A stretch of 24,000 nucleotides of DNA from an uncultured Spirochaetales bacterium (GCA_964512945.1 CAZEKV010000004.1:13172-37171), one strand, 5' to 3'. Counted from the first letter of the stretch, positions 5,434-22,000 are shown. The notes: generated from the letters alone by a model not told the origin. A program made the numbers and translations.

Positions 5434-7227
5434 TTACTTTTGTCTTTTAAGACTCAACTGAAAACGGCAGCCGCCCCTCCTGCGATTTTCAACCCTGATT
5501 GTGCCCTTATATTTCTGCATAATTCTATAGCTGAGGGGAAGCCCCAGTCCCATATTACGCCCTGTTGCGGCTTTTGTAGAAAAAAACGGTAAAAAAATCT
5601 CCTTCTGCTGATCTGCAGGGATTCCCGGACCTGTATCCTCAAACAGGATAATAACCAGGTCTTTTTCGGTTTTCAGGCATATACCAAGAGAGCCTCCGTC
5701 GGGCATAACCTCAAAGGCGTTATATGCAAGATTCAAAAAAACCTGTCTTAGCTCGTTTTTATCCGCTTTGACCTGGCAGGATTCCCCGGCTCTGGAAAAT
5801 TCTATCGTAATTCCCGATTCCTCTGCTTTAACTTTTAGCAGCCGGGTTAGGCTCTGGAGCAGATCTCCGGGATCGAAGATTGTAACCTCACTGGATGATC
5901 TATCCGAGAAAGCTATCAGGTTGCCGACAATTTTCGCTACTGATTCTATTTCTTCCTCGATTCCCCTGATAATATCCATTTGTTTTTCGTTAATGCCGGA
6001 GAATTTCAGATTTTCCAGACAGTAGCCCATGATATCGAGGGGATTGTTTATTTCGTGGGCCACTCCTGCAGATAAAAGCCCGAGAGAGGCCAGATTCTCC
6101 GACAGGGTAATTTTCTCTCTAAGTTTTTCCTGTTCTGTTATATCTGTCATAATTAAAATATTTCCGAGAAGGGTAGACCTTTCCGTTATGGGATAGATAG
6201 TCAGGTTGAACAAGAGGTTTTTCCCATTTTTTTTAAGGGGTATCTGGTAGTAGGTTTTGTATTTTCTGTTACTAAAGGATTTTTTAAGTATTTTTGAGAA
6301 TTTTTCATTTCCCGGGGGTATTAATTCTATAATCCGTTTATCCCCTATATTCGATCCAAGGATATTTTCTGCCGCTGTATTCTGCATTCGGATTTTTCCG
6401 CTGCCGTCCAGTATTACAAAACTAACCGGAAGATCCTTTATTACCGCTTCATTGTATTTGAGTATCTGACTGAATGTTTCTTTTGTCAGGACATCTCTTG
6501 TGTTAAGGCTGTGGGTATAGGCGAGCCGGATCAGGTTTGTTTTGTCAATGTGATCGACTTTTTCCGTGAGAAGAACCCTTCCTTCACGAATAATTGTAAT
6601 CCTGTGGGCTATGTTGTAGATATCATCCACCCTGTGGCTGATAAACATGACCCCCATTTCTCCGGCGGCAGTCCTTTTGTTAAGGATGTCCAGAAGCCGG
6701 CTCTGGTTTTCCGATGATAGTTTTTCAAGGGTTTCGTCCATTAATAAAAATCTGGGGTGGTGGTAAAGATGTCTCAGGATATCAACAAGAACCTTGTCTG
6801 ACAGTTTCAGATCCGACAGCAGGGTAGAGGGATCAAGATCGAAATCCATTTTTTCAATGTACTCACCGGCTGTCTGGAGGTTCTTCCTCCTCGTAATAAA
6901 GGGATAAAGTCCTGCTTTATTGTCAAGGAGAAGATTTTCGGCAACTGTCATATTCTCATAAAGGGGGTTGTTCTGTGCGACAATTCTGATTCCCAGAGCC
7001 ATGGCGGTTCCGGGGATGAGGGGTTCCATTAGTTTTCCCTTCCAGTAGAGTTCCCCTTTTAAGGGGCGCTGCATCCCCGCCACTATGTGGGCAAGTGTTG
7101 ATTTTCCCGCTCCATGCTCGCCTATGATAGCGTGGATTTCTCCTCTCTTAAACTCAAGGTTTATATTTTCCAGGGCGGTTACACTGTTGTATTGCTGGCA
7201 TATCCCACGGGTTCGCAGTAGTACCAT
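5434..7227 (-). CDS. Cytoplasmic sensor histidine kinase with an N-terminal ABC-type ATPase (NBD) domain: NBD-PAS-HisKA-HATPase_c
   Basis: 597 aa with no TM segment. NBD: Walker A GEHGAGKST (aa 36-44), Q-loop Q85, Walker B FLLMDE (aa 160-165), H-loop ISHR (H198), and a degenerate signature LKLSDKV. PAS-like region at aa ~250-365 (VILDGSGKIRMQNTAAENILG...IMTDITEQEKL). H-box GVAHEINNPL (His391 = codon 6057..6055). N-box LNLAYNAFE, G1 DTGPGI, G2 GLGLPL. The start ATG shares one base with the stop of the upstream regulator gene (TGATG). Confidence 0.85.
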   Translation of the reverse strand: MVLLRTRGICQQYNSVTALENINLEFKRGEIHAIIGEHGAGKSTLAHIVAGMQRPLKGELYWKGKLMEPLIPGTAMALGIRIVAQNNPLYENMTVAENLLLDNKAGLYPFITRRKNLQTAGEYIEKMDFDLDPSTLLSDLKLSDKVLVDILRHLYHHPRFLLMDETLEKLSSENQSRLLDILNKRTAAGEMGVMFISHRVDDIYNIAHRITIIREGRVLLTEKVDHIDKTNLIRLAYTHSLNTRDVLTKETFSQILKYNEAVIKDLPVSFVILDGSGKIRMQNTAAENILGSNIGDKRIIELIPPGNEKFSKILKKSFSNRKYKTYYQIPLKKNGKNLLFNLTIYPITERSTLLGNILIMTDITEQEKLREKITLSENLASLGLLSAGVAHEINNPLDIMGYCLENLKFSGINEKQMDIIRGIEEEIESVAKIVGNLIAFSDRSSSEVTIFDPGDLLQSLTRLLKVKAEESGITIEFSRAGESCQVKADKNELRQVFLNLAYNAFEVMPDGGSLGICLKTEKDLVIILFEDTGPGIPADQQKEIFLPFFSTKAATGRNMGLGLPLSYRIMQKYKGTIRVENRRRGGCRFQLSLKRQK

Positions 7228-8570
7228 CAGGTTATCCCGTACTTCTCAAGTTTGTTGTAGAGTGTTTTTCGGCTTATCTTAAGGAATTCTGCTGTTTTTT
7301 TCTTGTTAAAACGCCAGGTTTTCAGTGTTTCGCGGATCAATTTTTCTTCCATTTTGTCTCCTGGTTTTTTTTGGGGAGTTCCCTCTCCATGAACTGTTTT
7401 TTGCAGGAGATCCGGGGGTAAATCCTGGATGGTGATAGATTTACCGGTAGAGACCGCTTCCATATAATGAATAGCGTTTTTTAATTCCCTTATATTTCCC
7501 GGCCAGGTGTAGTTATTTATTATTTCCATTACTTCATTACTCAGGGATTTCTGAGGGGTGTTAAGGTTTTCCGAGATCTCTTTTAGAAAATAATCAATAA
7601 GGAGGGGGAGATCCCCCTTTCTTTCCCTTAAGGGAGGGATCCTGATTGTTGCGAGATTGAGTCTGTAAAACAAATCCTCCCGGAATTCTCCTTTTTTAAG
7701 CATTTCCTGGAGATTTTTATTAGTAGCTCCTATAAAACGAACATCAACTGTTATTGTTGATTCCCCCCCGAGTCTTCTTATTTCCTTGTTCTGAAGGGTC
7801 CTCAGTATTTTCGATTGAATTTCCAGGGGCATATCTCCTATCTCATCGAGGAAGAGGGTTGTTCCCCCGGCTCTCTCGAATATGCCCTTGAAATTCCTGT
7901 CTGCACCCGTATAGGCACCCTTCTCGTGGCCGAATAATTCATTATCAAGAAGATTTTCGGGAAGAGCGGCACAGTTTAGCTTGTAGAATTTTTTGTTGCT
8001 GCGTGAGGACTGTTTGTGAATAAAATCAGCTATCAGCTCTTTCCCCGTCCCGCTTTCTCCCGTAATCAGAATGGGGAAATCCCTTTCTGCAAGTTTTCTT
8101 AGCTTTTCAAGGATTCCGAGCAGCTCCCCGTTTTTTGTAATAAGCCTGTTTTTATTTTCCTGGAGAAGCTCCTTTAGTTTGGTATTCTCCTCTTTCAGGT
8201 GCTTATAGCTTCCTGCATTGATGACCCTTTGATATATTTTTGCAAAGTTTACGGGTTTCTGGATATAATCATAGGCTCCGAGTTTAAGTGCTTCAACTGC
8301 GTTTTCTACTGTCCCGTATCCTGTTACCATAATCACCGGAATGCTGCTGTAGTTTTTTCTGAGATATTTCAGAAGCTCCAGCCCGTTTTCTTCTCCGAGG
8401 CGGAGATCGAGAATAATTGTATCGGGAATGAATTTCTTCAGCTTTTTTTTTGTTTCAGCAGTATTGAGGGCGTATTCCGCTGCACATCCCATGTGCTCGA
8501 AGTCTTTCACAAGTATGCGGCAGAGTTTTTCTTTATCGTCAACCACAAGTATTTTCATAGGGCTATGCAT
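7227..8570 (-). CDS. Sigma-54-dependent response regulator (NtrC family: REC + AAA+ + Fis-type HTH)
   Basis: 447 aa. REC: KILVVDD...IILDLRL. AAA+: Walker A GESGTGKE, sigma-54 contact loop GAYTGA (a GAFTGA variant), Walker B LFLDEIGDM, RFIGATN and FREDLFYRLN. C-terminal HTH: KKKTAEFLKISRKTLYNKLEKYGI. The start could instead be the second Met at 8558 (MKILVVDD). Confidence 0.92.
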   Translation of the reverse strand: MHSPMKILVVDDKEKLCRILVKDFEHMGCAAEYALNTAETKKKLKKFIPDTIILDLRLGEENGLELLKYLRKNYSSIPVIMVTGYGTVENAVEALKLGAYDYIQKPVNFAKIYQRVINAGSYKHLKEENTKLKELLQENKNRLITKNGELLGILEKLRKLAERDFPILITGESGTGKELIADFIHKQSSRSNKKFYKLNCAALPENLLDNELFGHEKGAYTGADRNFKGIFERAGGTTLFLDEIGDMPLEIQSKILRTLQNKEIRRLGGESTITVDVRFIGATNKNLQEMLKKGEFREDLFYRLNLATIRIPPLRERKGDLPLLIDYFLKEISENLNTPQKSLSNEVMEIINNYTWPGNIRELKNAIHYMEAVSTGKSITIQDLPPDLLQKTVHGEGTPQKKPGDKMEEKLIRETLKTWRFNKKKTAEFLKISRKTLYNKLEKYGIT

Positions 8571-8589: not shown

Positions 8590-8614
8590 TACACACTGTG
8601 TAATTATTATACAC
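8590..8614. promoter_or_regulatory. Overlapping dyad repeats: candidate enhancer-binding-protein site / operator
   Basis: TACACA-C-TGTGTA is a perfect 6+6 palindrome at 8590..8602. TGTGTA-N7-TACAC forms a second dyad using 8597..8602 and 8610..8614. The element lies 96-120 bp upstream of the sigma-54 -24 element and overlaps the -10/start region of the divergent regulator promoter. Confidence 0.45.
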
Positions 8615-8635
8615 TTTTTTGGGGTATGTTGTCAA
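8606..8635 (-). promoter_or_regulatory. Sigma-70-type promoter of the response-regulator/kinase operon
   Basis: The minus strand reads TTGACA-N18-TATAAT (-35 at 8635..8630, -10 at 8611..8606). Confidence 0.5.
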
Positions 8636-8709: not shown

Positions 8710-8725
8710 TGGCATGATTTTTGCA
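8710..8725 (+). promoter_or_regulatory. Sigma-54 (-24/-12) promoter of the CUT2 ABC operon
   Basis: TGGCATGATTTTTGCA matches the consensus TGGCACG-N4-TTGCW. GG is at 8711-8712 and GC at 8723-8724, which is the exact canonical spacing, with only one mismatch (C to T) in the fixed positions. It lies 72 nt upstream of the GTG start at 8797. A sigma-54-dependent activator is encoded divergently. Confidence 0.75.
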
Positions 8726-8796: not shown

Positions 8797-9930
8797 GTGA
8801 AACATTTTTTTACGATTTTGTTGGTATTTACTCTGTTTGTTGCAATCCTGCCCGGATGCGGGAGAGGGAGGGGAAATAATTCAGGAGAGGTATCCGTTCT
8901 TCCGGGTGATTCTCCAGAGACAACGGATGAGCAGCTGGCTCTGGCAACGGGTCCCAACGGTGAGACCGCAGTAAGGGCAAAGGAAGTCGTTCTTACAGAA
9001 GACCAGATTGCCAGTATAAAAACTAAGGGCTATACAGCTGCCATGCTATGGGCCGGTTCAGGAGAATGGTATAATGCAATGTCTGATGGAGCCTCTGCCA
9101 TGTTTAAGAAGCTTGGTATAAAGGTTCTTATTAATTCCGATGCCCAGTTCGATATGGCCAAACAGGCTACGGATGTTGAAACAAGTCTTTCTCTAAATCC
9201 GGATATCATTCTTACCCTTGTTGTCGATCCTGTATCCGGAGCCAGGGCCTTTCAGCCGGCAGTAGATGCGGGGGTAACCCTTGTTCTGGCAGACAATGGT
9301 GTTGACGGCTATACCGCAGGAAAGCAGTATTGTTCTGTAGTAACAGGGGATCACTTCGGTATGGGGCGTGCTGCTGCGGAGTTGATGAATGAGGCTATTA
9401 ATGGTTCGGGTGAGATTGGTTTTATCTTCCATGATGCGGATTTTTTTGTAACAAATAATCGGGATAATGAGTTTAAGCGTACTATCAAATCCAGATATTC
9501 AGGTATAAAAATAGTCGCAGAGGGAGGCTTTACCGATGAGGCTGGCACGGAAGAAATTGCCGCAGCGATGTTGACACGTAATCCGGGGATCAAGGGTATA
9601 TATGTTGCCTGGGATGTCGCCGCAGAGGGAGTAATTGCAGCGTTAAGGGCTGCAGGAAGGGAAGATGTAAAAGTCATTACACACGATCTTGGAGCTACAA
9701 ATGATCTTGATATGGCGATGGACGGGAATATGTACGGTAAGGTAGCGGATCTACCCTATGATCTTGGGATGTGTATGGCAAAGATCGCCGCTCTAAACCT
9801 TCTTGGTAAAAAGGTTCCCCCTTTTGTAGTTGTTCCTTCTGTTAAAATGACAAAAGAAAACATTGTTGAGGCATGGAAGGTTTCGTTAAGAAAAATGCCT
9901 CCTGAGAATATACTTAAGACATTAAAATAA
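8797..9930 (+). CDS. ABC transporter substrate-binding lipoprotein, periplasmic-binding-protein type I (ribose/sugar, RbsB-like)
   Basis: 377 aa. GTG start with SD AGGAGGAG. The N-terminus MKHFFTILLVFTLFVAILPGCGRG is a signal peptide plus lipobox Cys. The body has the alternating beta-alpha pattern and length of type-I sugar-binding proteins (VVDPVSG..., LVLADNG..., ITHDLG...). CUT2-type permease and ATPase genes follow. Confidence 0.8.
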   Translation: MKHFFTILLVFTLFVAILPGCGRGRGNNSGEVSVLPGDSPETTDEQLALATGPNGETAVRAKEVVLTEDQIASIKTKGYTAAMLWAGSGEWYNAMSDGASAMFKKLGIKVLINSDAQFDMAKQATDVETSLSLNPDIILTLVVDPVSGARAFQPAVDAGVTLVLADNGVDGYTAGKQYCSVVTGDHFGMGRAAAELMNEAINGSGEIGFIFHDADFFVTNNRDNEFKRTIKSRYSGIKIVAEGGFTDEAGTEEIAAAMLTRNPGIKGIYVAWDVAAEGVIAALRAAGREDVKVITHDLGATNDLDMAMDGNMYGKVADLPYDLGMCMAKIAALNLLGKKVPPFVVVPSVKMTKENIVEAWKVSLRKMPPENILKTLK

Positions 9931-9956
9931 TAATCTAAAATTCTACACTTATTCAG

Positions 9957-9982
9957 CCAGGCGGGAAGTAAAACCCGCCTGG
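9957..9982 (+). promoter_or_regulatory. Intercistronic GC-rich stem-loop after the SBP gene (attenuator / mRNA-stabilising hairpin)
   Basis: Perfect 9-bp stem CCAGGCGGG (9957..9965) / CCCGCCTGG (9974..9982) with an 8-nt loop, 27 nt after the SBP stop. No clear U-tract follows (AGGGTTTATCT), so it is probably not a full terminator. Confidence 0.55.
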
Positions 9983-10007
9983 AGGGTTTATCTCTGGAGG
10001 ATCCTTG

Positions 10008-10967
10008 ATGCAAAATAAATTGTCCGGGCTGCTGAAAAAGAACTACAGCCAGTATGTTGTCTATGTTAGTTTTTTCCTTATTTTGATATTTTTTTCCATA
10101 ACACTGTCGCCTGCGGTATTTTTGTCGCCTTTACAGCTCATGAATATCCTTAGACAAACGGCTATGGTTTCGATTATGGCCGTTGGCATGACTTTTGCGT
10201 TAACCGCCGGGGAGATTGATCTTTCCATAGGATCCCTCGTCGCCCTTTCTGCTCTGGTGACAGGGGTTGTACTGAACAGGTTTGACAGTATACCTCTTGC
10301 ACTTTTTGCGGGGCTTGGTACTGGAGTTACTGTGGGTTTTGTAAATGGGCTTATTACGACAAAAGCACGAATACCCGCTTTCCTGGTAACTCTTGGAACT
10401 GCGAGTATTCTAGGAGGTTTGGCTCGGTCCATCACAAATCTTGAATCTGTTCCCATCATAAATAAAAGTTTTAATTATATATTTGGTTCGGGGAATGTGG
10501 GGATTGTTTCAACCCTTTTTATCTGGACTATTCTAATAGCCTGTGCAGGTCACCTTCTCCTTAAGAACACACCCTTTGGCAGGGCGGTCCTGGCAACGGG
10601 AGGTAATAGAAGTGCTGCAAAATACTCCGGGATACGTACCGACCGTATCAGAATAGCTGTTTTAACAATCAGTGCTCTTTCGGCTTCCTTTGCGGGGGTT
10701 CTCTACGCCGGGCGCCTCCATGGTGCACGCTATACACTGGGAGGATCGGATCTTATGACGGTTATTGCAGCGGTTATAATAGGCGGTACAAGTTTTTCGG
10801 GGGGCATGGGTTCTGTTGTGGGTGCTATAATAGGCTCGCTGGTTATGGGGATGATGAACAGCGGTCTTCTCCTTATGGGGTTGAATGTTTCCCAGCAGAT
10901 GATAGCCCGCGGAATTATCATTATTGTTGCTGTTTCCTTGAGTCTCAGGGAAAAATCCGAGTCCTGA
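10008..10967 (+). CDS. ABC transporter permease, CUT2 family (RbsC/AraH-like)
   Basis: ~319 aa, highly hydrophobic. Family blocks are AVGMTFALTAGEIDLSIGS and ATGGNRSAAKYSGI. The ORF track starts at TTG 10005. ATG 10008 is preferred because SD GGAGG (9996..10000) sits 7 nt upstream of it. Confidence 0.9.
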   Translation: MQNKLSGLLKKNYSQYVVYVSFFLILIFFSITLSPAVFLSPLQLMNILRQTAMVSIMAVGMTFALTAGEIDLSIGSLVALSALVTGVVLNRFDSIPLALFAGLGTGVTVGFVNGLITTKARIPAFLVTLGTASILGGLARSITNLESVPIINKSFNYIFGSGNVGIVSTLFIWTILIACAGHLLLKNTPFGRAVLATGGNRSAAKYSGIRTDRIRIAVLTISALSASFAGVLYAGRLHGARYTLGGSDLMTVIAAVIIGGTSFSGGMGSVVGAIIGSLVMGMMNSGLLLMGLNVSQQMIARGIIIIVAVSLSLREKSES

Positions 10968-10979
10968 CGGGGAGGTGCC

Positions 10980-12161
10980 ATGTTTCTGGATGTATTGAAA
11001 AAAAGGAATCCCGATTTTATAAAAGCTGCGGTTGTTCTCCACCAGAACCGCCGGATCCCCTCAAACTGCTATCTTCTGGATCTTGATAGAATCAGGGAAA
11101 ATGCCAGGATTATCAAGGCAAATGCAGATAGATACAATATGAAAGTGTTCGCCATGAGCAAGCAGATCGGCAGAGAACCCTCGGCGATAAAGGCTCTTTT
11201 TGAGACAGGAATAGTTGACTATGTTACTGTTGATATTCAGGGAGCGAGGGCAGTTGTTTCCGCCGGAGGGGGGATAGGTCACGCCGGACATCTTGTTCAG
11301 ATTCCTGGGGGAGATATCCCCTGGATGATAGAGCATTCTCCTGAGTTCTGGACCGTTTTCAGTTATGAAGCCGCAAAAGAGATAAGTGAAAACCTTCCAC
11401 CGGGAAAAACCCAGAGGGTTCTTGCCCGGATTCAAGCCGAAGGGGATATCTTCTACCGTGGACATGAGGGGGGATTCCCCGCCGAAGAGATCCTGAAAAC
11501 CGCAGAAAGGCTTGCTTCTCTGCAGGGCATAGAGTTTGCAGGAATAACATCTTTTCCCTGTCTGCTTTTTGATAATGTCAAAAAAGATGTATATACAACT
11601 CCCAATCTTAAAACATTAGCCAGGGCTGCAGGGCTTCTGGAAAAAAATGGATGGAATAATCTTGAAATCAACACGCCTGGAACAACAAGTTCCCGGGTCT
11701 TATCCCTTTTTGCCGAGGCAGGTTCGACACAAATTGAACCCGGTCACGGTTTTACAGGAACAACCCCTCTTCATGCCGTAAGGGATCTTCCCGAAACTCC
11801 CGCAGTTCTTTATGTTTCGGAAATCTCTCATTTTCTGGGGGAAACCGCCTATTGCTACGGAGGGGGGCTTTATATAGATCCTGTTTTTCCTCCCTATGAT
11901 GTTCAATGTCTATGTCTGAGTGCTCCGGAAGAGATCCTCCAGAGACAGTTCCATATAGAACTTCCGGCAGATAATGCCATTGATTATTACGGGATGATCC
12001 GGTCTTCTTCTCCACGGCGGGGAGATACGGTAATAATGGGATTCAGACCCCAGGTCTTTGTTACAAGGTCGTATGTTGCAGGAATATCGGGGATAAGCAG
12101 GGGAAACCCCGTACTTGAGGGGATATCCTTTTCTGACGGAAGGAGGGTGGAATGGCCGTAA
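10980..12161 (+). CDS. PLP-dependent alanine-racemase-fold protein, YhfX-like putative amino-acid racemase
   Basis: 393 aa. SD GGGGAGG upstream. The N-terminal region MFLDVLKKRNPDFIKAAVVLHQNRRIPSNCYLLDLDRIRENARII, the candidate PLP Lys in VFAMSKQIGR and GHAGHLVQIP resemble, from my memory, the E. coli YhfX / alanine-racemase N-terminal TIM-barrel family. Family assignment was not verified by a search. Confidence 0.55.
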   Translation: MFLDVLKKRNPDFIKAAVVLHQNRRIPSNCYLLDLDRIRENARIIKANADRYNMKVFAMSKQIGREPSAIKALFETGIVDYVTVDIQGARAVVSAGGGIGHAGHLVQIPGGDIPWMIEHSPEFWTVFSYEAAKEISENLPPGKTQRVLARIQAEGDIFYRGHEGGFPAEEILKTAERLASLQGIEFAGITSFPCLLFDNVKKDVYTTPNLKTLARAAGLLEKNGWNNLEINTPGTTSSRVLSLFAEAGSTQIEPGHGFTGTTPLHAVRDLPETPAVLYVSEISHFLGETAYCYGGGLYIDPVFPPYDVQCLCLSAPEEILQRQFHIELPADNAIDYYGMIRSSSPRRGDTVIMGFRPQVFVTRSYVAGISGISRGNPVLEGISFSDGRRVEWP

Positions 12162-13669
12162 AGAATGGGTATCTTCTTGAGGCAAGGGGAATCCGGAAAA
12201 GTTTTTCCGGTGTGGAGGTTCTTCACGGTGTTGATTTTCTCCTTGAAAATGGGGAAATCCACGGTCTTGCGGGAGCCAATGGGGCGGGCAAGTCCACTTT
12301 AATGAAAATTCTTAACGGGGTTTATCATCTTGACGGGGGGCAAATTTATCTGAACGGGAAGATTATGGCGATAAAAACCCCCATAGAGGCCGCCGGAGCG
12401 GGTATTGCCATGGTCTTTCAGGAATTCAGCCTGATTTCGACAATGACGGTGGCCGAGAATATCTTTCTTGCACGTGAACCCCTGCATAGAATTCTCTTTA
12501 TAAACAAGGAAGAAATTCATGCGAGAACCCTCAAGGTATTGGAACGCCTTAAAGTGGATATCGATCCGGATGAAACCCTGGGGAATCTATCTGTTGGAAC
12601 CCGCCAGATAGTGGAAATTGCGAAAGCTCTCAGCAAGGACTGCCGGGTTTTGATCCTTGATGAACCGACAGCCTCGCTCAGTCAGAGTGAAATATTGATT
12701 TTTTTCAGGATTCTCGCAACCCTCAAAGAACAGGGAATTTCAATTATCATGATAACCCATCATCTCCAGGAGATTATGGATATCTGTGACAGGATTACTG
12801 TTTTAAGGGATGGTAATGTTACCCTGCGGGAGAAAATCGATTCCATTTGCCTGGAGGATGTTATAAAGGCTCTGGCGGGGCAGACGGTAAATCGGGAGGT
12901 ATTCTCCCGTGTTTATAAGTCCTATCAAGGGGGGACTCCCTGTCTTGAAGTAAAAGGTTTGAGGTATGCCTCTCTTCTTTCCGGCATCGATTTTTCTCTT
13001 TACAAGGGCGAGGTTCTTGGTTTTGCCGGATTGCTTGGAAGCGGGAGAACCGAAATTCTCAAGAATATCTATGGTCTTCTGCATCCATCAGGGGGCGAGA
13101 TTCTGATAAACACTAAAAATGTCAGGGTAAAGCATCCTGCCGATGCTCAGAAAGAGGGGGTCAACTTTGTTCCTGAGGACAGGCATAAGAACGGTATAAT
13201 CAGGGGGCAGTCCCTGATGAATAACATAATGCTTTCAGTCTGGAAGGAATATACCCATTTTTTATTTTTGCGTCTGGAAGAAGCCGCAAAGAAGGTCGGT
13301 GTTTTGATAAAACGCCTTAAAATAAAAACTCAGGGATGGAGTCAGCTTATTGAGCAGCTCTCTGGAGGGAACCAGCAAAAAGCGGTTATAGCCAGAGCAA
13401 TAGCGGCAAACACAAGGATCTTACTCCTTGATGAGCCCACCGTTGGGGTTGATATAGCCTCCAAGCAGGAGATTCTCAGTGCGGTGCGTCAGTTTGCCGA
13501 TGAAAACAAGGCCGTGATTATCGTATCCAGTGAGATGGAGGAACTTGCGCAGGTCTGTGACAGGGTTCTGGTTATAAAAGAGGGAAGAATAATAAAGGAG
13601 TTTAATCGCCGCGATGATGTTGAAATAACGGAGGATATTCTAATGGCTGCATCCCAGGGCCGGGTATAG
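12152..13669 (+). CDS. ABC transporter ATP-binding protein, CUT2 family, tandem NBDs (RbsA-like)
   Basis: 505 aa. NBD1: [41 protein letters not shown]2: the family-typical degenerate Walker [25 protein letters not shown] and [11 protein letters not shown]. The start overlaps the racemase-fold gene by 10 nt, and SD GGAGGG lies upstream. Confidence 0.92.
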
Positions 13670-13696: not shown

Positions 13697-13725
13697 TTGA
13701 CAGTATCAAAAAAAGAGCGTATTAT
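13697..13725 (+). promoter_or_regulatory. Near-consensus sigma-70 promoter abutting ptsI
   Basis: TTGACA (13697..13702) - N17 - TATTAT (13720..13725). Only 9 nt separate the -10 from ATG 13735. Confidence 0.55.
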
Positions 13726-13734
13726 ATTCAGGTA

Positions 13735-15477
13735 ATGAAAGAGTATAATGGTATCTCTGCATCCCAGGGCATTGTCGCGGGAAAGGCCTTTCTGTACATC
13801 GAAGACAATATTAAGATCCCGGCCTATGAGATAAAAAGCAAAGAAATAAAACAGGAGCTGGATAGGTTTCTTAAGGCCGTAAGAAAGGCCGAGGAAGAGC
13901 TGGGAGAGCTGAAGAAACGGACTGTTGCTGAACTGGGAGAGCAAGAAGGGAGAATACTCGACGCTCATATTCTTATGCTGAATGATCCTGAATTTCAGGA
14001 TGAAATCAATAAAAACCTGATTACAAAAAAGAGAAATGTTGAATGGGTTCTGCTTGATGTAATAAATAATTTGATAGACAAAATGAAATTATCAGAGGAT
14101 ACCTATTTGAGAGAGCGTTCTCTTGATATCAAGGATATTTCCGTAAGAGTGCTTAACAATCTGCTCTACAGGAAGAGAAAGCTCCTTTCCGATATTACTG
14201 AAGAAGTAATTCTGGTTACGCATAATCTTTTACCATCGGATGCCCTGTTGATGAACAGGCGGATGGTTAAGGGAATCGCCATGGATGTCGGGGGCAGGAC
14301 ATCTCATACGGCGATCCTTGCTCAGTCGTTTGAGATTCCAGCGGTGCTGGGACTTTCGGATATTACAGCACATATCCGGGATGGTCAGGAAATAATAGTG
14401 GATGGTAATGCCGGTAAGGTTATTATTTCCCCCGATGCCCCCACAAAGAGAAAATATGAAAATAAATATCAGGAGTGGCAGAGGCGGGAGGTTCAGCTCC
14501 TATCTTTGAATGAGTTATCCGCTGAAACAAAAGACGGTAAGTTAATCAAACTAAAAGCCAATATAGAGGTTCCGGAAGAAGTTGATTCCGTAATGTCTCA
14601 TGGGGCTGACGGGATAGGGCTTTTTCGTTCGGAATTCCTTTTCTTGCAGTCGTCGAGGATATATTCCGAAGAACAGCAGTTTGAAGTTTATAAAAAAGTT
14701 TTAACCGATATGGATAAAAAAAGCGTGACAATTCGTACTCTTGATGTCGGCGGTGATAAAATTATTCCTGATTTTGAGAGTTTTAACGAGAAAAATCCTA
14801 TTCTGGGATGGCGGGCTGTTCGTTTTTGTTTATCAAAGGTTGAATTGTTTAAAAACCAGCTTAAAGCCCTGCTGAGAGCCTCTATCTACGGTGAGCTAAA
14901 AATCATGTTCCCGATGATTTCGGGAATTGAGGAGCTGAACGAGGTCTTTGCCATACTGGACGGGGTTAAGGATGAATTCGATAAAAAAGGGATAGAGTAC
15001 AAAAAAGATATTCCGGTTGGTATAATGATCGAAGTGCCCTCTGCGGCTCTAACCTCCGATATCCTTGCAAGAAAGGTTGATTTCTTTTCAATAGGAACAA
15101 ATGATCTGATCCAGTATACAATTGCCGTTGACAGGGGTAATGAAAAAATAGCCTACCTCTACGAACCCTTCCATCCTGGAGTTTTGAGGTTAATAAAATT
15201 GATAATTAATAATGCCCACGATGTTGGAATACCGGTGGGGATGTGCGGAGAAATGGCAGGTGATCCCCTTGCCACGGTAATACTCCTGGGATTCGGACTT
15301 GATGAATTTAGTATGAGTTCCTTCGGGATTCCTGAGATAAAAAAGATTGTCCGTTCGGTTTCAATAGCCGAGGCTGAGGAGCTGGTTGGCATGATTGAAG
15401 AGATGAAATCCTATAAAGAAATAGACCCCTTTATTACGAACTGGATGGAGAGCAGGTTTGACGTCATTGCTGGATAA
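13735..15477 (+). CDS. ptsI: Phosphoenolpyruvate-protein phosphotransferase (PTS Enzyme I)
   Basis: 580 aa. Active-site His block [19 protein letters not shown], plus [17 protein letters not shown] and the catalytic Cys block [10 protein letters not shown]. The N-terminus [14 protein letters not shown] is typical of EI. Confidence 0.95.
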
Positions 15478-16804
15478 GCCGCATATACCCGGAATAGCAA
15501 TTGTCGGGCGTCCGAATGTGGGAAAATCGACCCTGTTCAACAGATTCCTGAAAAAAAGGAGAGCCATTACGGATCCTACGCCGGGTGTCACGCGGGATTC
15601 AATAGGAGAGGTCTGTGAGATTTCCGGAAAAAAAGTGATTCTCTTTGACACCGGCGGGATAAAACTGGATAATGACGATCTCGATGAAATTGTAAAATCA
15701 AAAAGCCTTGAAACCGCCAAAAATGCCGACTTGATATTGTTACTCATGGATGTCATGGAAATTACCCCTGAAGACAGGGAATTTATAGAATACCTGCGTC
15801 CCTATTCAAAAAAAATTATTCTTGTTGTAAATAAAGTTGATAATGAAAAAAGAGAACAGGATTTATGGAATTTCTATTCAATAGGCTTTGAAAAGGTTGT
15901 AGGTATTTCCTCCGCTCACGGCAGCAATATTTCCAGTCTTGAAGACATGATTGTTAAGGCTGTAGGGGATTTCTCCGGAAGTGAAATAGGGGGAGTTGAG
16001 GAGGAAACCGAACCGGAAATAAAATTGGCAATACTGGGAAAACCCAACACCGGAAAATCTACCCTCGTAAACTCCCTGACCAATCAAAAATTATCGATTG
16101 TATCCGAGGTGTCCGGTACAACGAGGGATGTTGTAAGGGGGGAGTTTATACATGATAATCATCACTACCGGGTTCTGGATACAGCAGGGATAAGGAAAAA
16201 GAAGAAGGTCAACGAGAATGTTGAATACTATTCCGTAAGCCGGGCAATAGGGACTATTGAGGAAAGTGATGTAATTTTTCTGATGATTGACGCAGAAGAG
16301 GGAATTTCCGATCAGGATAAAAAGATTGCCGGATTAATTGTAAAAAAGGGGAAAGGGGTAATTCTTGTTTTAAGTAAATGGGATAAAATCAAAGCCTCTC
16401 TGAAATCGGAGAAAAATGCTGTAGAAAAGATTCGCTTTCATTTTCCAGTACTCGATTTTGCCCCCGTAGTAACGATTTCCGCCATAAAAAATAAGGGTAC
16501 AGGGAAACTGCTTAAAACGGCGTACGAAGTCTGGAGTCAGTTAAATACCAGGGTTGAAACATCCCACCTGAATCGCCTCCTGGCGGTATGGGTTCAGGAT
16601 TTTACTCCCCCAGGGGTCAGCCCGAGGAAAAATTATAAAATACGCTACATTACCCAGTTTAAATCAAATCCTGTTATATTTATCCTTTTTATAAACAGAA
16701 TAAAAGCCTTTCCTGAAAGCTATATCAGGTATATTACGAACATGATACGGAATGATATTGGATTTAAGAACGTTCCGATTACCCTGGAGTTAAGGAAAAG
16801 ATAA
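15458..16804 (+). CDS. der: Ribosome-associated GTPase Der (EngA), tandem GTPase domains + KH-like C-terminus
   Basis: 448 aa. G1 motifs GRPNVGKST and [13 protein letters not shown] / DTAGIR, NKVD / SKWD. TTG start at 15458 with GGAGAG 7 nt upstream. It overlaps the ptsI 3' end by 20 nt. Confidence 0.93.
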
Positions 16805-16839
16805 TAATTTATTCCTGAAATCCGATAGGTAAAAGTAGG

Positions 16840-18165
16840 ATGAAGATATATTTTTTGTTATTTTTCTTTTTTCCCTGTTTGTTTCTTTTTACGCAGCAGT
16901 ACTGCCCCGATCTTTACGATATAGAAAATAATCTACTACGGCGGGAATATAAGAAAAAAATAATTCAATCAACAGCAGATGTTCTCATGCTGCACTCAGG
17001 ATATTTAACCTCCGGGAGCGGAAGGAGAGTACATTTCGATATCCAGCGGAAAAAAGATTTCTATTTTATATTGTTTACAAACGAATTGAACAACTCCTTC
17101 CCTGTTTTCAGTGCCGGAAGCGTTATAATAAAGCGTAGTATTAAGGACGGCTCATTCCTCCAGATAAAAATGTTTATAAGAAATGATCCCGGCTGTTTTA
17201 TCAGGATTTTTCCTCTTTACAAAGATCTGATTGTGGGAAATGGAAGCAACAACTCAATATCAGAATTGCAAAGATCGAGTATGGATGTCTATTTATACGG
17301 AAAATTACTCTATGAGAATATTATTCTTCCATGTTCTTTCGATACGGCTCTAACAATCTCATTTTCAAAGATTGTTGAGATGACGGGAGACAGTGTTGAA
17401 TGGGAGCTGTTGCTGCCGGAAAAAAAGAAGAACAGTGAGAACCTTCTTACAAAGAAGATTGCCCAAAAAATCAGGGCAGAAATTCCCGGGTTAAGGGAAG
17501 CTGAAGACGGGGCAATAGATGAGGACGGCGAATATGTTTATATAGAAACACTGGAAAAACAATTCCGGGATGATTGTGGTCTTAATTGTTCGGGGTTTGC
17601 CAAATGGGTTGTTGACGGTCTGTTTTATCCCATTCATGGTAAATATATAGAAATTAGCAGATTGAAAGAAAAACATCCCGATCTGAGGGGGAGTGACTGG
17701 AGTGAGAGATACGAAGATCAAAGAGATCCCTATTTTGGGCTGGATTGGATCAGAAATTTGGGTTTTGTGATGAAAAATACGGATGCTCGCAGCTATCTCC
17801 AGGATAGAGATAAGATTGATGTATCAGGTGTTCCCTTTTTTAAATACACAACCAATGTTGGATATCCTGTCAGGGATCTAAAACTTCTGTTTTACTTTCT
17901 TGCCAGGATTGAGCCCGGTTATATTTATATAGGATCTGTTAACCGTGAAGTTGGGAAAAAGCCTATGCTCCGTCAGTATGTCCATGTTGTTGTTTTTTGT
18001 CCCTACATTGATGAAAATGATGAAATAGTAGTTGATGTTTTTGAGAGGTACACGGGGGTACTGGAAACGAATCTGGAATCACTTGAGAAGAGATTTCGAA
18101 ATGATTATATCCATCTTGTAAGAATCAGGGCAGAGGGCGACTTCTATCATAAAAACGATTTTTAG
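16840..18165 (+). CDS. Secreted hypothetical protein (441 aa); possible papain-fold Cys/His enzyme
   Basis: N-terminal hydrophobic signal-like segment MKIYFLLFFFFPCLFLFTQQ. I recognise no family. The motif GLNCSGFAKWVVDG (Cys250, codon 17587..17589) resembles the NlpC/P60 catalytic DCSGF block, and a later YVHVVVF (His382) followed by an acidic DENDE run could supply His and a third residue. The Cys-His spacing (~130 aa) is much longer than in canonical NlpC/P60. Confidence 0.6.
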   Translation: MKIYFLLFFFFPCLFLFTQQYCPDLYDIENNLLRREYKKKIIQSTADVLMLHSGYLTSGSGRRVHFDIQRKKDFYFILFTNELNNSFPVFSAGSVIIKRSIKDGSFLQIKMFIRNDPGCFIRIFPLYKDLIVGNGSNNSISELQRSSMDVYLYGKLLYENIILPCSFDTALTISFSKIVEMTGDSVEWELLLPEKKKNSENLLTKKIAQKIRAEIPGLREAEDGAIDEDGEYVYIETLEKQFRDDCGLNCSGFAKWVVDGLFYPIHGKYIEISRLKEKHPDLRGSDWSERYEDQRDPYFGLDWIRNLGFVMKNTDARSYLQDRDKIDVSGVPFFKYTTNVGYPVRDLKLLFYFLARIEPGYIYIGSVNREVGKKPMLRQYVHVVVFCPYIDENDEIVVDVFERYTGVLETNLESLEKRFRNDYIHLVRIRAEGDFYHKNDF

Positions 18166-18280
18166 TATTTTTTGGGTCTTTATGCATGATTCCGGGAAAT
18201 ACCACAAAACTCATAATTCGGCGTTCAAAAAATTTCCGTCCTGTACAGGCCTGCCATATGGATATATGGAATCACTGCTC

Positions 18281-18309
18281 TTGATTACTAATTGAGTCTT
18301 ATGTACTAT
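18281..18309 (+). promoter_or_regulatory. Sigma-70-type promoter abutting the HAD hydrolase gene
   Basis: TTGATT (18281..18286) - N17 - TACTAT (18304..18309). Only 7 nt separate the -10 from ATG 18317, and there is no SD. Confidence 0.5.
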
Positions 18310-18316
18310 GTAGCAT

Positions 18317-18997
18317 ATGATTAAGGCCGTTATTTTTGATATCGACGGTACCCTGTACCCCGATTTTAAGATGTATTTTCACTCCATATTCTTTTTCCTC
18401 TGTCATCCCAGGCTTGTATTTTTTTTTAGCAAAATACGGAAGCAGATACGAAAAGAAAGGCCAATAGGGAATTTTAGAGACAAACAGGCGGAAATGCTTG
18501 GAAAAATATATAAAATACCGGAGAAGAAGGCCTGTGAAATACTGGAAAAATATATCTACGGTAAATGGGAATCCACATTCAGGGGAATAAAAATAACCAG
18601 AGATGTAATCGATGCTCTTAATGAATTAAGGAATATGAAACTAAAGTTGGGCGTACTGTCGGATTTTCCCGTTGAGAGAAAGCTTCGGTTTCTCGGTCTT
18701 GAGGGGATATGGGATTGTGCAGTCTGTTCGGAGATTACAGGTTATCTAAAACCGAATCCCGAATCTTTTCTGTATGCAGCTAAGAGGCTGAATGTCCCTG
18801 TGCATAACATTTTGTTTGTCGGAAATAATTATTTTTATGATATAATTGGTGCCAGTAATGTGGGGATGAAAACGGCACATTTGTCTCTGAGAAAATCAAA
18901 AGCGGGTTCTGCGGCTGATTTTACATTTTCAGAATATTCCAGTTTGGTTGAGTTTATAAAAAATGAAACCGGAGGGAATTGCAAAGCAGATGAGTAA
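18317..18997 (+). CDS. HAD-superfamily hydrolase (subfamily IA-like phosphatase)
   Basis: 226 aa. Motif I is VIFDIDGTLY (DxDGT). Motif II-like is LGVLSDF. Motif III/IV is KPNPESF...FVGNNYFYDIIGASNVGM. Confidence 0.85.
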   Translation: MIKAVIFDIDGTLYPDFKMYFHSIFFFLCHPRLVFFFSKIRKQIRKERPIGNFRDKQAEMLGKIYKIPEKKACEILEKYIYGKWESTFRGIKITRDVIDALNELRNMKLKLGVLSDFPVERKLRFLGLEGIWDCAVCSEITGYLKPNPESFLYAAKRLNVPVHNILFVGNNYFYDIIGASNVGMKTAHLSLRKSKAGSAADFTFSEYSSLVEFIKNETGGNCKADE

Positions 18998-19094
18998 GGA
19001 TTTATCGACTGGATACCGGTTATAGCAGCGGGATGCCGGCAGAATACCTAAATATCCCGGCATAAGATATATTAAAGTTTTGGGAGCGGGAACT

Positions 19095-22000
19095 ATGGAA
19101 TATTTTTATGTAACTCTTTTTAATATCGGGATTGTCCTGGTAATTTTGATGGTTTATCGTCAGATGGATCAGAACAACAGATCTTTAGAAAAAGTAAAGC
19201 GCTATACCGATAGAATGAAAGAGAAGTTAAGCGGTTTTGTTGATGAAAAAACCCTTGAGTTGAAGGATCTTTCTGTTGAAGTCGATGTACACCAGAAGGC
19301 TGCCAAAGAAATTCTAAAAAGAATTATTAAGGCAGAAGAAGACTTGAGCGGAAGATCCGATAAAATCGAGTCTATCAATAAACGAATAATCGAGTACGAT
19401 AGCTCCCTTGATGATCTGGTCAAGATGTCAATAAGGGTTGATACAAACCTGAAGCATTTGCAGGAGGAATCCGATTTTGTAGACAGGGTGGGCAGACAGA
19501 TAAAAGAGGCCTCATCTCAGATGCAGAGGATTGAACAGAAGATTCCTGGAATAAGCAAGGAATTTTCAAGACAGAATGGTGAGCAGCTGGTTAATATCAG
19601 AAAAGAAATAGTGAAGAATACCGAAAAACAGGTAGCTAGCATATCAGGACATGTCAATAAAGCAGAACAGATGGTCAAGGATTTTTTAAACCATATTGAA
19701 CGTCTTGAGGCGAGGAGAGATGAGGTTGAATCCGACACAATAAAATCCCTCAAGGATATTTCCGGCGGATTTATCAGGGATGCCGAAAAAGAAAAAATTA
19801 GTTTAAGCGAAAATTTTAGTGCCGAGCTTGATGATATATTTTCAAACAACCTTGAGAAGGTTAATGCTCTTAATGGAAAAGTTAAGGAGAATTATGAAAA
19901 ACTCAAGAGAGAAATCTCTGTAACGGGGAGTACAGTAACTGAAAAGGTAAAAGCTTTTCAATCTAATCTGAAAACCCTTGAAAGGGAATATCAAAATAAT
20001 ATCCAGGCTATTGCAGTCAGGGGAAAAAATTTAGAAGATGAAGTTTTTATTAACCTGAAAAACCACATCGTTTTTGCTTCCGAAAAAGTTAAAAACGAAA
20101 TGTCCGAAAATGTGGGAACGCTGAATGAAAGGATCGTCAAGATTCAGGAAAATGCTGATAAAAAGATGGAGAAAATAGAGAAGTCCATACAGGAATATGA
20201 AGAGAATCTCTTATATAAATTCACCAAGCTTGAAGATGTAAATGTTGATATTATAGAAATCGAGAAAAATCTCCATAATTCAATGGGGGGAATAACAGAG
20301 AGGATTCAGGAAGATCTGGATGAATTTTCAAAGGAAATTGAGGCTAAACAGACTAAGGAAAAGGAAAAAGTTGAGCTTGAAATGGCGAAAGTTCAGAAGA
20401 CCATGGAAACCCTTGAAAATGAACTTGTTCAGCTTAAAAAGCGTGCCTACGATAATGTTTCGGAAAAGCTGCAGGTATTTGAGGATGATTTCTTTTCAGA
20501 TATCAAGAAACGGGATGATAATATCCAGAAAACCATGGGTAAATGGGAAAAGAAGATTGAAAAGGATGTCCGGCTGGTGGCAGAGGAGAATTCTTCGGCA
20601 AGGGAAATAATGGAAAAGCATTATTCGGAAGAATTGAAGGACAGGCTGACGGAGCTTCAAAACAAGACCTATCAGCAGTACGACAAGTTTGAGGATCAGG
20701 TTCTTGGTTTTCAGGAGAGACTTAATCAGAGAATACTTCTTTCAGAGGGTTCGATCAAAAATCTAGAAGATAGTATAAAAAATGATATTGAAGAAGTTGA
20801 AAAAAATTCAAAGACTTTTTTTACAAAAGAGATCGAAAGCAGCAATAGAATTATAAATGATAAGATAAAGAAATTTGAAAAAGAAATTGAAGATCAATTA
20901 AAGACTTTCAAAAACAGTGTGGGTGAGTCCAGAAAGGATTTCATGGCTGTTATGGAAACCGCCCGGTCGGAGGCTACTGTCTGGCAGGCGAAAATTCTCC
21001 AGCAGATGAAAGTTGAAGAGGCGGATGTAAGCGATAAAATTACCAATCTAAAAACAGAGCTGTCGGCAACTATCGGAGAGATTCAGGAAGAATTTAAGGC
21101 TCAGAGGAATGTTCTTATAACCAATACCCGGAAGGAACGCAATGATCTAAAGAATGAGTTAGTAATGGTTTCCGGCAAGATTGATGATTTTGTAGATGAT
21201 TTCAAGCAGAAAACCATTGAAATTACTGATAGTTTTAACAAGGAAAGAGAAAAAAATGATTTTGAATTCCAGCAGAAAATAAGGGATTTTAGCCTGGAAA
21301 TTGAACAGCAGGTTAAGGATTTCCGTATTTCTACAAAGGATTTCAAGGAAAAAGTTGATTCAATGCAAAAGAAAATGTACGGCAAAATTGAGGAAAATTC
21401 AAAAATACTTACGGTAAATCTCCAGGAAATCGACAAAAAACAGAAAAGTTTTATTGAGCAGACCAAAATATTTGACAGGGCAGATGCCCTGAAGGTTAAC
21501 CTGCAGGAAGCCATAGAAGATTTAAAGCAGGAGATAGTGCGTGTTGATCATCAGGTAAAAGAATTTAAAGAGGCCGAGAGGAAATTCCTTAAAATCAGAA
21601 AAATGGGAGAAGAAGTATCAACGAAATTGACAGGCTTTCTATCTGAAAAAAGAAGGATTGAGGTCATGGAGGGAGATTTTAAGAAATTGATAAACATGTC
21701 CCAGGCTGTAGATGTTAAACTGGATCAGGTCACCGGAAGCTACGATTCCCTTCAAAAGATTCAGGCAAAGATCAGGGGGCTTGAGGAGCTTGAAAATGAG
21801 GTTCTTCAAAAATATGAAAGGCTTGAGAACAAACGGGATGTGGTTCAAACAGCCATTGACGGTGTGGAAAGTAATTTTCAAAATCTTGAAAAACTGGAAA
21901 AGCGTTTTTTTGCTATGAGTAAAGAAATTGAAAAGATTCCTGGAAAACTTAACGACACCGCTAAAAGAATTGACATTCTGACAAAGGATAGAAAAAAAGC

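Follow-up and report, generated by a model that had tools for sequence, protein, structure and literature searches.

Why should the gene for an enzyme that relies on pyridoxal 5'-phosphate (PLP) lie between the membrane and the ATPase genes of a sugar-type ATP-binding cassette (ABC) importer? The question is raised by an operon on the plus strand of a stretch of 24,000 nucleotides (nt) from an uncultured Spirochaetales bacterium (GCA_964512945.1, CAZEKV010000004.1:13172-37171). This whole stretch is referred to here as the window, and positions are counted along its full length unless a locus is named. According to open reading frame (ORF) calls and Pfam matches, the operon (8797-13669) encodes, in this order, a lipoprotein substrate-binding protein (SBP) of the CUT2 type (8797..9930; Peripla_BP_4, E = 8.7e-40), a CUT2 permease (10005..10967; BPD_transp_2, E = 1.2e-43) that is closest to GguB, AraH and RbsC, a cytoplasmic YhfX-family enzyme of PLP fold-type III with 393 amino acids (aa) (10980..12161; Ala_racemase_N, E = 1e-15, and YhfX-like_C, E = 8.6e-26), and a CUT2 ABC ATPase with two fused nucleotide-binding domains (NBDs) (12152..13669; two ABC_tran domains). 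The SBP, the permease and the tandem-NBD ATPase together identify the transporter as a CUT2 importer, with the same domains as RbsABC and AlsABC, from which it differs in having an enzyme gene between the permease and ATPase genes. In several phyla, we find these four genes as an old core that is inherited together. With a probability of about 0.5, this core would form a self-contained module for the import of an amine-bearing sugar, followed by its PLP-dependent conversion towards glucosamine.

The junctions of the enzyme gene are short on both sides. The permease gene ends with TGA at 10967 and the enzyme gene begins with ATG at 10980, which leaves a gap of 12 nt with GGGGAGG inside it. At the other end, the TAA of the enzyme gene ends at 12161 and the ATG of the ATPase gene lies at 12152, giving an overlap of 10 nt, with GGAAGGAGGG preceding the ATPase start. 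The SBP gene starts with GTG, 8 nt past AGGAGGAG, and its product contains the lipobox LPGC. An earlier note on this DNA had described the gene order, the gap with its GGGGAGG and the overlap, all of which can be read directly in the DNA, and from this layout the enzyme gene is predicted to be translationally coupled between its two neighbours. The note had concluded that enzyme and transporter must be made stoichiometrically, which does not follow from translational coupling.

A survey of 92 loci with a full-length homologue of the enzyme, comprising annotated contigs and 80 metagenome loci labelled with seed proteins, revealed that the arrangement is widespread. Of the 84 loci that are informative on the upstream side (8 others were too short), 75 have a CUT2 permease gene directly upstream of the enzyme gene; the gap between the two has a median of 15 nt (n = 76), and an ABC NBD gene follows directly downstream in 70 of 81 (11 too short), 40 of these encoding a single and 30 a tandem NBD. 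This gene order is far beyond chance. When the proteins of the window were used in tblastn searches of six genome loci, the order SBP, permease, enzyme, ATPase was found in a Spirochaetaceae metagenome-assembled genome (MAG), a Chloroflexota MAG and three Alphaproteobacteria. In the Spirochaetaceae MAG, the identity is 71-83% over six genes, the two regulatory genes of the window (see below) included. Cassette loci come from Spirochaetaceae, Chloroflexota, Thermoanaerobacterales/Clostridia and Alphaproteobacteria, thus from at least four phyla. All cassette-linked enzymes fall into one clade of the tree, apart from E. coli YhfX and from a clade of paralogues, and the few loci without a transporter are nested inside the cassette clade, which indicates that the loss of the transporter is secondary. 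The picture of an enzyme wedged into a transporter operon, as drawn in the earlier note, therefore stands as to its arrangement and falls as to its being an oddity of one operon. The functional link between enzyme and transporter is much stronger than a single operon had implied.

Among 40 sampled genomes of the same class, a close homologue was present in none and a distant homologue in only one, so that the cassette appears patchy; it is probably mobile. The G+C content of the operon region (0.45-0.47 for 9001-13000) is slightly above that of the 8 kb downstream (0.37-0.42 for 14001-22000), which, together with the patchy spread among relatives, hints at horizontal acquisition. An enzyme gene within an ABC operon is nothing unusual as such. 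The novelty lies in the kind of enzyme, a PLP protein of fold-type III from an orphan family, and in its fixed place between permease and ATPase in sugar-type importers of several phyla. Our literature search returned no functional study of YhfX, of yhfS or yhfW, of the cassette or of CUT2 amino-sugar transporters.

The 393-aa product is a genuine YhfX-family fold-type III PLP protein, in agreement with the racemase-type fold proposed for it earlier. It matches the structure of E. coli YhfX (b3381; PDB code 4KBX) over its full length (residues 1-382, E = 1.8e-71), both of its Pfam domains score above their cut-offs (PF01168, 58.5 bits; PF21279, 90.8 bits), and an AlphaFold2 model with a mean confidence (pLDDT) of 92.8 yields a Foldseek TM-score of 0.92 to 4KBX. 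No NCBIfam model matched at E<=1e-5. Lys61, the lysine of the motif AMSKQ and already put forward as the PLP ligand, is invariant in 121 of 121 homologues, and aligns with the lysine of LMTKQ in YhfX as well as with the PLP lysine of D-threonine aldolases. Some 60 further positions are likewise invariant, including many His, Asp, Glu and Tyr residues and Cys292. The window enzyme and E. coli YhfX thus share the Ala_racemase_N and YhfX-like_C architecture, the PLP motif (xMSKQ/xMTKQ) and an F-P-C motif. They differ in that the E. coli protein lies outside the cassette clade, is ~36% identical to the window enzyme (Foldseek alignment to 4KBX), and is encoded in the cluster yhfZYX-yhfW-php-yhfUTS rather than inside an ABC operon.

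Which reaction such a fold might catalyse is less readily read from its relatives. After YhfX, the only significant PDB hits of the family profile are D-threonine aldolases and a D-3-hydroxyaspartate aldolase (E = 3e-4 to 3e-3), aligned over the barrel only. Foldseek likewise places D-threonine aldolases first after YhfX (TM-scores of 0.64-0.68), with alanine racemases (~0.6), a D-Orn/D-Lys decarboxylase and D-hydroxyaspartate enzymes close behind. The profile finds no alanine racemase in the PDB at E<=1, and the enzyme falls outside the alanine racemase (Alr/DadX) family; a mapping of residues by alignment to alanine racemase was discarded, as the hhalign comparison with E. coli Alr was not significant (probability 0.3%). 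With D-threonine aldolases as the nearest folds, the term "racemase fold" is correct but does not imply a racemase reaction. The metal-dependent group of D-threonine aldolases and D-3-hydroxyaspartate aldolases/dehydratases (PDB codes 7DIB, 4V15, 7YQA, 6QKB and 4PB5) shares the aligned PLP lysine with the window enzyme, but the sequence alignment covers the N-terminal barrel only, and the C-terminal domain of the window enzyme belongs to a different family (PF21279).

A candidate second base is offered by the motif Ser191-Phe-Pro-Cys194 of the window enzyme, which reads H-F-P-C in E. coli YhfX. Ornithine racemase lacks the tyrosine of alanine racemases and uses a lysine and the cysteine of an N-F-x-C motif instead, Lys36 and Cys164 in the Salmonella enzyme OrnR (PMC13397332). 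OrnR is also a fold-type III PLP enzyme whose gene is embedded among transporter genes, but these are amino-acid-type transporters, accompanied by a decarboxylase, and not a sugar-type ABC system; the equivalence of the two cysteines is drawn from the motif only. Cys194 is retained in the small clade of the window, in E. coli YhfX and in a second paralogue of the same genome. Across the 121 homologues, however, an alanine stands at this position in 103, a cysteine in 9, a threonine in 7 and a serine in 2. We therefore rejected a Lys/Cys mechanism of the OrnR type as a trait of the family and consider it only as a possible mechanism in the clade of the window. Racemisation or epimerisation immediately on entry, which the earlier note had suggested, is consequently no more than a candidate activity of the enzyme.

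The second paralogue just mentioned lies on contig C186 of the window's genome (L011:1486-2745, plus strand). It is 419 aa long, 37% identical to the window enzyme, and likewise carries S-F-P-C. Its gene stands outside any transporter operon, on a 4-kb contig and convergent with a gene of the NeuB family (sialic-acid-synthase-like).

Genes that accompany the cassette point to the pathway it might serve. Four context types can be distinguished. Type A, to which the window belongs, has an NBD-fused kinase and a sigma-54 regulator and no other enzyme. Type B comprises ROK, M20, one or two SBPs, permease, enzyme and a single NBD, at times followed by a SIS gene. In type C, ROK and a BadF-type kinase join a core with tandem NBD, and in type D the enzyme lies between ROK (plus a ROK kinase) and SIS, with a different transporter nearby. 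By comparison with NCBIfam models, the SIS partner is NagB-II-like (250-276 bits) or resembles the isomerase part of GlmS, the BadF-type partner resembles the Shewanella N-acetylglucosamine kinase and is thus NagK-like, the ROK partners resemble NagC or ROK sugar kinases, and the M20 partner is a deacylase of the ArgE/DapE family. The M20 proteins have no signal peptide, which places the deacylation after import. At locus L036, a bona fide NagB gene directly follows the ATPase gene (TIGR00502, 263.9 bits against a cut-off of 236.9), and members of the same protein cluster hold the same place in L041, L055 and L076. Clustering of the unlabelled neighbouring ORFs gave nothing broad beyond ROK, M20, BadF, SIS and NagB. 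Two unrelated kinds of glucosamine-6-phosphate deaminase near the cassette are the strongest pointer to the end of the pathway and suggest that it leads through glucosamine-6-phosphate. Regulator, kinase and deaminase types thus match those of the canonical Nag system (NagC, NagK, NagA, NagB), from which the cassette differs by the absence of NagA, an M20 deacylase being present instead in some lineages, and by the added PLP enzyme. Because the partner genes are Nag-like, the substrate is best read as an amine-bearing and not as a plain sugar, and in this respect the earlier note had judged well.

A different substrate is conceivable from the same partners. As the earlier note stated, the uncharacterised E. 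coli gene yhfX lies in a cluster directly beside frlABCDR. The imported compound could thus be fructoselysine or another glycated amino acid of the Amadori or Heyns type, which the kinase and the SIS protein would phosphorylate and deglycate. The PLP enzyme would then either racemise the free alpha-amino-acid end, in the manner of Orn/Lys racemases, or act on the amino acid once it is released. One locus, L105, has an APC-family permease (the family of FrlA), a GntR/UTRA regulator (as is FrlR) and an adjacent frl-like cluster, and M20 enzymes include dipeptidases that might trim glycated peptides. The partners themselves fit less well: the SIS protein, with its 250-276 bits on NagB-II, reaches at most 46 bits on fructoselysine-6-phosphate deglycase, and four loci have as their partner a bona fide NagB, which is not a deglycase. 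Moreover, racemising a glycated amino acid would bring no evident catabolic benefit, and we regard this explanation as unlikely.

A second alternative is prompted by the fold neighbours. For oxidised chitin, Pseudoalteromonas uses the OngC/OngB pathway, in which a cytoplasmic N-deacetylase comes first and a PLP enzyme of fold-type III then works on a D-amino compound that resembles a sugar; the genes of the pathway are clustered with those of dedicated transporters (PMC9537276). The cassette might similarly take up a 2-amino-2-deoxy-aldonic acid (D-glucosaminate, free or N-acetylated, as may come, for example, from the oxidative degradation of chitin), with the YhfX-type enzyme as an OngC-like deaminating dehydratase that would yield 2-keto-3-deoxygluconate (KDG) and ammonia, and the M20 protein in the role of the deacetylase OngB. 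The nearest folds after YhfX (D-threonine aldolases, D-3-hydroxyaspartate aldolase/dehydratase and a putative D-serine deaminase) are in line with such a reaction. Amino acids with an N-alpha-acyl group are the typical substrates of M20 enzymes of the ArgE/DapE type, the lack of conservation at residue 194 would be accounted for by an elimination that needs one base, and 2-keto-3-deoxy-6-phosphogluconate (KDPG) aldolase is encoded in the window's genome. Against this stand the neighbours of the cassette, among which clustering found no recurring gene for KDG kinase or KDPG aldolase, and the recurring NagB, NagB-II-like enzymes and NagK-like or ROK sugar kinases, for which a KDG route has no use; an arginine, furthermore, is lost from the pocket of the SBP and none is gained. 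The parts lists differ as well. The Ong system employs a sodium-solute symporter, TonB receptors, a deacetylase of the D-aminoacylase family, KdgK and RidA (PMC9537276), as opposed to a CUT2 ABC importer, an M20 deacylase and recurring glucosamine-6-phosphate deaminases rather than KDG enzymes in the cassette. An amino-aldonate as substrate is equally improbable in our estimation.

The transporter was compared with CUT2 systems of assigned specificity. In NCBIfam, its parts come closest to systems for ribose, allose, arabinose, xylose and multiple sugars, yet all equivalog models (ribose, allose, arabinose, xylose and autoinducer-2) score far below their cut-offs, so that the specificity appears to be new. 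For a view of the binding pocket, 50 cassette SBPs were aligned with E. coli RbsB and AlsB; the identity is ~25%, and the alignment blocks look sound. At the known ribose contacts of RbsB, all 50 cassette SBPs carry the same changes: Arg90 is replaced with Asn, Gln235 with Asp, Asn190 with Trp, Pro14 with Asp or Glu, Gly142 with Asp, and Phe164 with Ser, Thr or Ala, while Arg141 and Asp215 are retained. The predicted pocket is thus less basic and more acidic, with a new Trp, and would be compatible with a cationic amine ligand, which we treat as soft evidence.

The likeness of SBP, permease and ATPase to ribose, allose, arabinose and xylose systems also raises the thought that the importer handles a plain monosaccharide and that the enzyme gene is an unrelated passenger. 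A variant is vitamin-B6 uptake with a PLP-binding acceptor protein, as the ATPase has a match to a model named "putative B6 ABC transporter". That match is below threshold (321 bits against a cut-off of 670) and the gene context is wrong, Nag-like partner genes being at odds with B6 salvage, and we rejected the B6 idea. A passenger, in turn, would not keep its slot in most informative loci across phyla and co-diverge with the transporter, nor do the sub-cut-off equivalog scores favour a plain sugar. Taken together, we consider these explanations highly improbable.

The genome of the window (2.35 Mb assembled, 82% complete) has no other CUT2 system, and the permease of the operon is the only one of its kind found in the assembly. 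A bona fide NagB is encoded on contig C5 (L106:4827-5633, 413 bits), and is the only part of a Nag-type pathway found in this genome; in other lineages, kinase, M20 deacylase and NagB or NagB-II-like genes flank the cassette. Searches of the 82%-complete genome found no NagA, ROK, Glk-type glucokinase or EIIC of the glucose/lactose type of the phosphotransferase system (PTS), while ptsI is present. A tblastn search of the genome with the ROK, BadF, SIS and M20 partners returned nothing convincing, and its BadF-family matches are unrelated proteins of 1400 aa. A Glucosamine_iso match on contig C150, considered as a deaminase, proved to be 6-phosphogluconolactonase. The gene contexts on C145 and on C74, where the KDPG aldolase is encoded, gave no link. 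The presence of NagB in the absence of NagA fits the supply of an amino sugar that is not acetylated.

Returning to the import and conversion of an amine-bearing sugar, the following course of events can be envisaged. The imported compound would be an amino sugar other than glucosamine itself, or an N-acyl form in lineages that possess the deacylase, perhaps taken up there via the second SBP of many type-B loci. Once inside, its primary amine would form an aldimine with PLP, and the enzyme would alter the amine-bearing carbon. The product would be glucosamine, or would enter the pathway as glucosamine-6-phosphate, to be deaminated to fructose-6-phosphate by NagB, which in the organism of the window is encoded away from the operon. 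We favour an epimerisation at C2, such as that of mannosamine to glucosamine, since no simpler single step compatible with PLP would lead to glucosamine. In the clade of the window, Lys61 and Cys194 might serve as the two bases, by analogy with ornithine racemase.

Several points weigh against this proposal. Every functional step in it is inferred from gene context. The deaminase genes adjoin the cassette in a minority of loci only. The closest folds after YhfX are those of D-threonine aldolases and related D-beta-hydroxy-amino-acid enzymes, not of racemases, and the prevalence of Ala and Thr at position 194 means that a two-base Lys/Cys mechanism is not general for the cassette. To our knowledge, a PLP-dependent amino-sugar 2-epimerase has no precedent. 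The reading of the SBP pocket comes from an alignment at low identity, and Asp also binds sugar hydroxyls. Finally, a kinase that could form the 6-phosphate did not turn up in the 82%-complete genome.

The constant slot of the enzyme gene between permease and ATPase genes and its tight coupling, as known for subunits that assemble together, allow for a role on the transporter itself. The YhfX-type protein could be an accessory subunit, for instance a sensor that depends on PLP, a gate, or a partner for channelling that is bound to the permease-ATPase complex, and not primarily a catabolic enzyme; type-A loci, which have no other enzyme beside the core, would suit this. The invariant PLP lysine and the ~60 further invariant positions are, however, what is expected of a working active site, and the enzyme also occurs without the transporter, between ROK and SIS genes (L005, L090/L105 and L092). 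We deem a structural role on the transporter very unlikely. Catalysis and docking might also be combined. In that case, the enzyme would be a physical fifth component of the importer, docked on the permease-ATPase complex and converting the substrate as it emerges, in a manner resembling group translocation, by an unprecedented PLP-dependent reaction, in which a free amino sugar would be epimerised or otherwise changed at its amine carbon; we hold this to be quite unlikely.

YhfX is an orphan family with no known function, although the E. coli structure has been public since 2014 and homologues run into the thousands. The four-gene, cross-phylum cassette, tied to genes that end in glucosamine-6-phosphate, gives this family a context that can be tested and narrows the candidate substrates to amine-bearing sugars. 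Cultured carriers of the cassette, in Mesorhizobium, Roseibium and Nitratireductor, are open to genetics. A PLP-dependent amino-sugar epimerase or lyase, if confirmed, would extend the known chemistry of PLP and add a branch to the recycling of amino sugars in soils, sediments and digesters.

In the window, the cassette is accompanied by its own regulatory genes. A sigma-54 -24/-12 promoter, TGGCATGATTTTTGCA, lies at 8710..8725 on the plus strand, 72 nt upstream of the SBP start. Nothing else in the window matches TGGCAY-N5-TTGCW, for which chance alone would give 0.05 matches. The same element precedes the SBP gene in the three closest sister loci (L001, L014 and L015), and RpoN is encoded in the genome. 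Divergent from the operon, on the minus strand, are the genes of an NtrC/AtoC-type response regulator and sigma-54 activator with receiver, AAA+ and Fis-type helix-turn-helix domains (7227..8570; Pfam and NCBIfam) and of a soluble histidine kinase (5434..7227; Pfam). The kinase has no membrane part; its input is an N-terminal ABC ATPase domain (NBD), followed by PAS, HisKA and HATPase_c domains. This NBD resembles those of CUT2 ATPases (NCBIfam) and has ~32% identity to the first half of the ATPase encoded nearby in the operon. The locus thus combines a -24/-12 element, a receiver-bearing enhancer-binding protein, a kinase and rpoN, the elements of a sigma-54 operon under a two-component system. 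Sigma-54 control of the operon, already proposed in the earlier note, is accordingly the prediction that the conserved element, RpoN and the NtrC-type activator support. As the kinase and the regulator adjoin the cassette in the three sister loci also, the NBD-fused kinase is the predicted regulatory partner of the type-A cassette, and this version offers a compact model for the wiring of transporter, enzyme and regulator.

Two further promoters lie beside the operon. One of the sigma-70 type with 12/12 consensus positions (TTGACA-18-TATAAT, 8606..8635, minus strand) faces the regulator genes and is a pattern match only. Downstream, a sigma-70-type promoter of ptsI (TTGACA-17-TATTAT, 13697..13725, plus strand) was taken as the boundary; from the stop codon of the ATPase gene to ptsI, no intrinsic terminator was detected. 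We considered ptsI as a member of the module and left it out, because a near-consensus promoter of its own precedes it and because the cassette is not followed by ptsI in L001, L014 and L015.

The ATPase gene of the cassette varies between lineages. Fused tandem NBDs are typical of CUT2 systems. In the type-B (M20/ROK) branch (L009, L010, L016, L017 and ~40 further loci), the ATPase is a single NBD of ~245-253 aa (for example L009:11206-11946), which in NCBIfam matches CUT2 ATPases best over their N-terminal halves. Whether the ATPase has a single or a tandem NBD follows the enzyme tree. In one organism that was sampled repeatedly (L026, L027, L029-L032 and L034), a 343-aa ORF without a Pfam or NCBIfam match directly follows the ATPase gene (L026:11808-12839).

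Other gene neighbourhoods were seen at single loci. Glycoside hydrolases of family 4 (NAD/Mn-dependent) are encoded near the enzyme in two Firmicute loci (L005:753-3042 and L007:19202-20455), the first of which also has a YesMN-like two-component system and a CUT1 ABC transporter; the monomer in these two loci may derive from an oligosaccharide. At L105 (12422-19494; contig Ga0179596_10000052), a set of ROK, ROK kinase, YhfX and SIS genes without a transporter lies between two gene groups. One contains a TonB-dependent receptor and the APC amino-acid permease, and the other is the frl-like cluster, which is of the B. subtilis type and consists of SBP_bac_1, two BPD_transp_1, PfkB and SIS genes, with the GntR/UTRA regulator in between.

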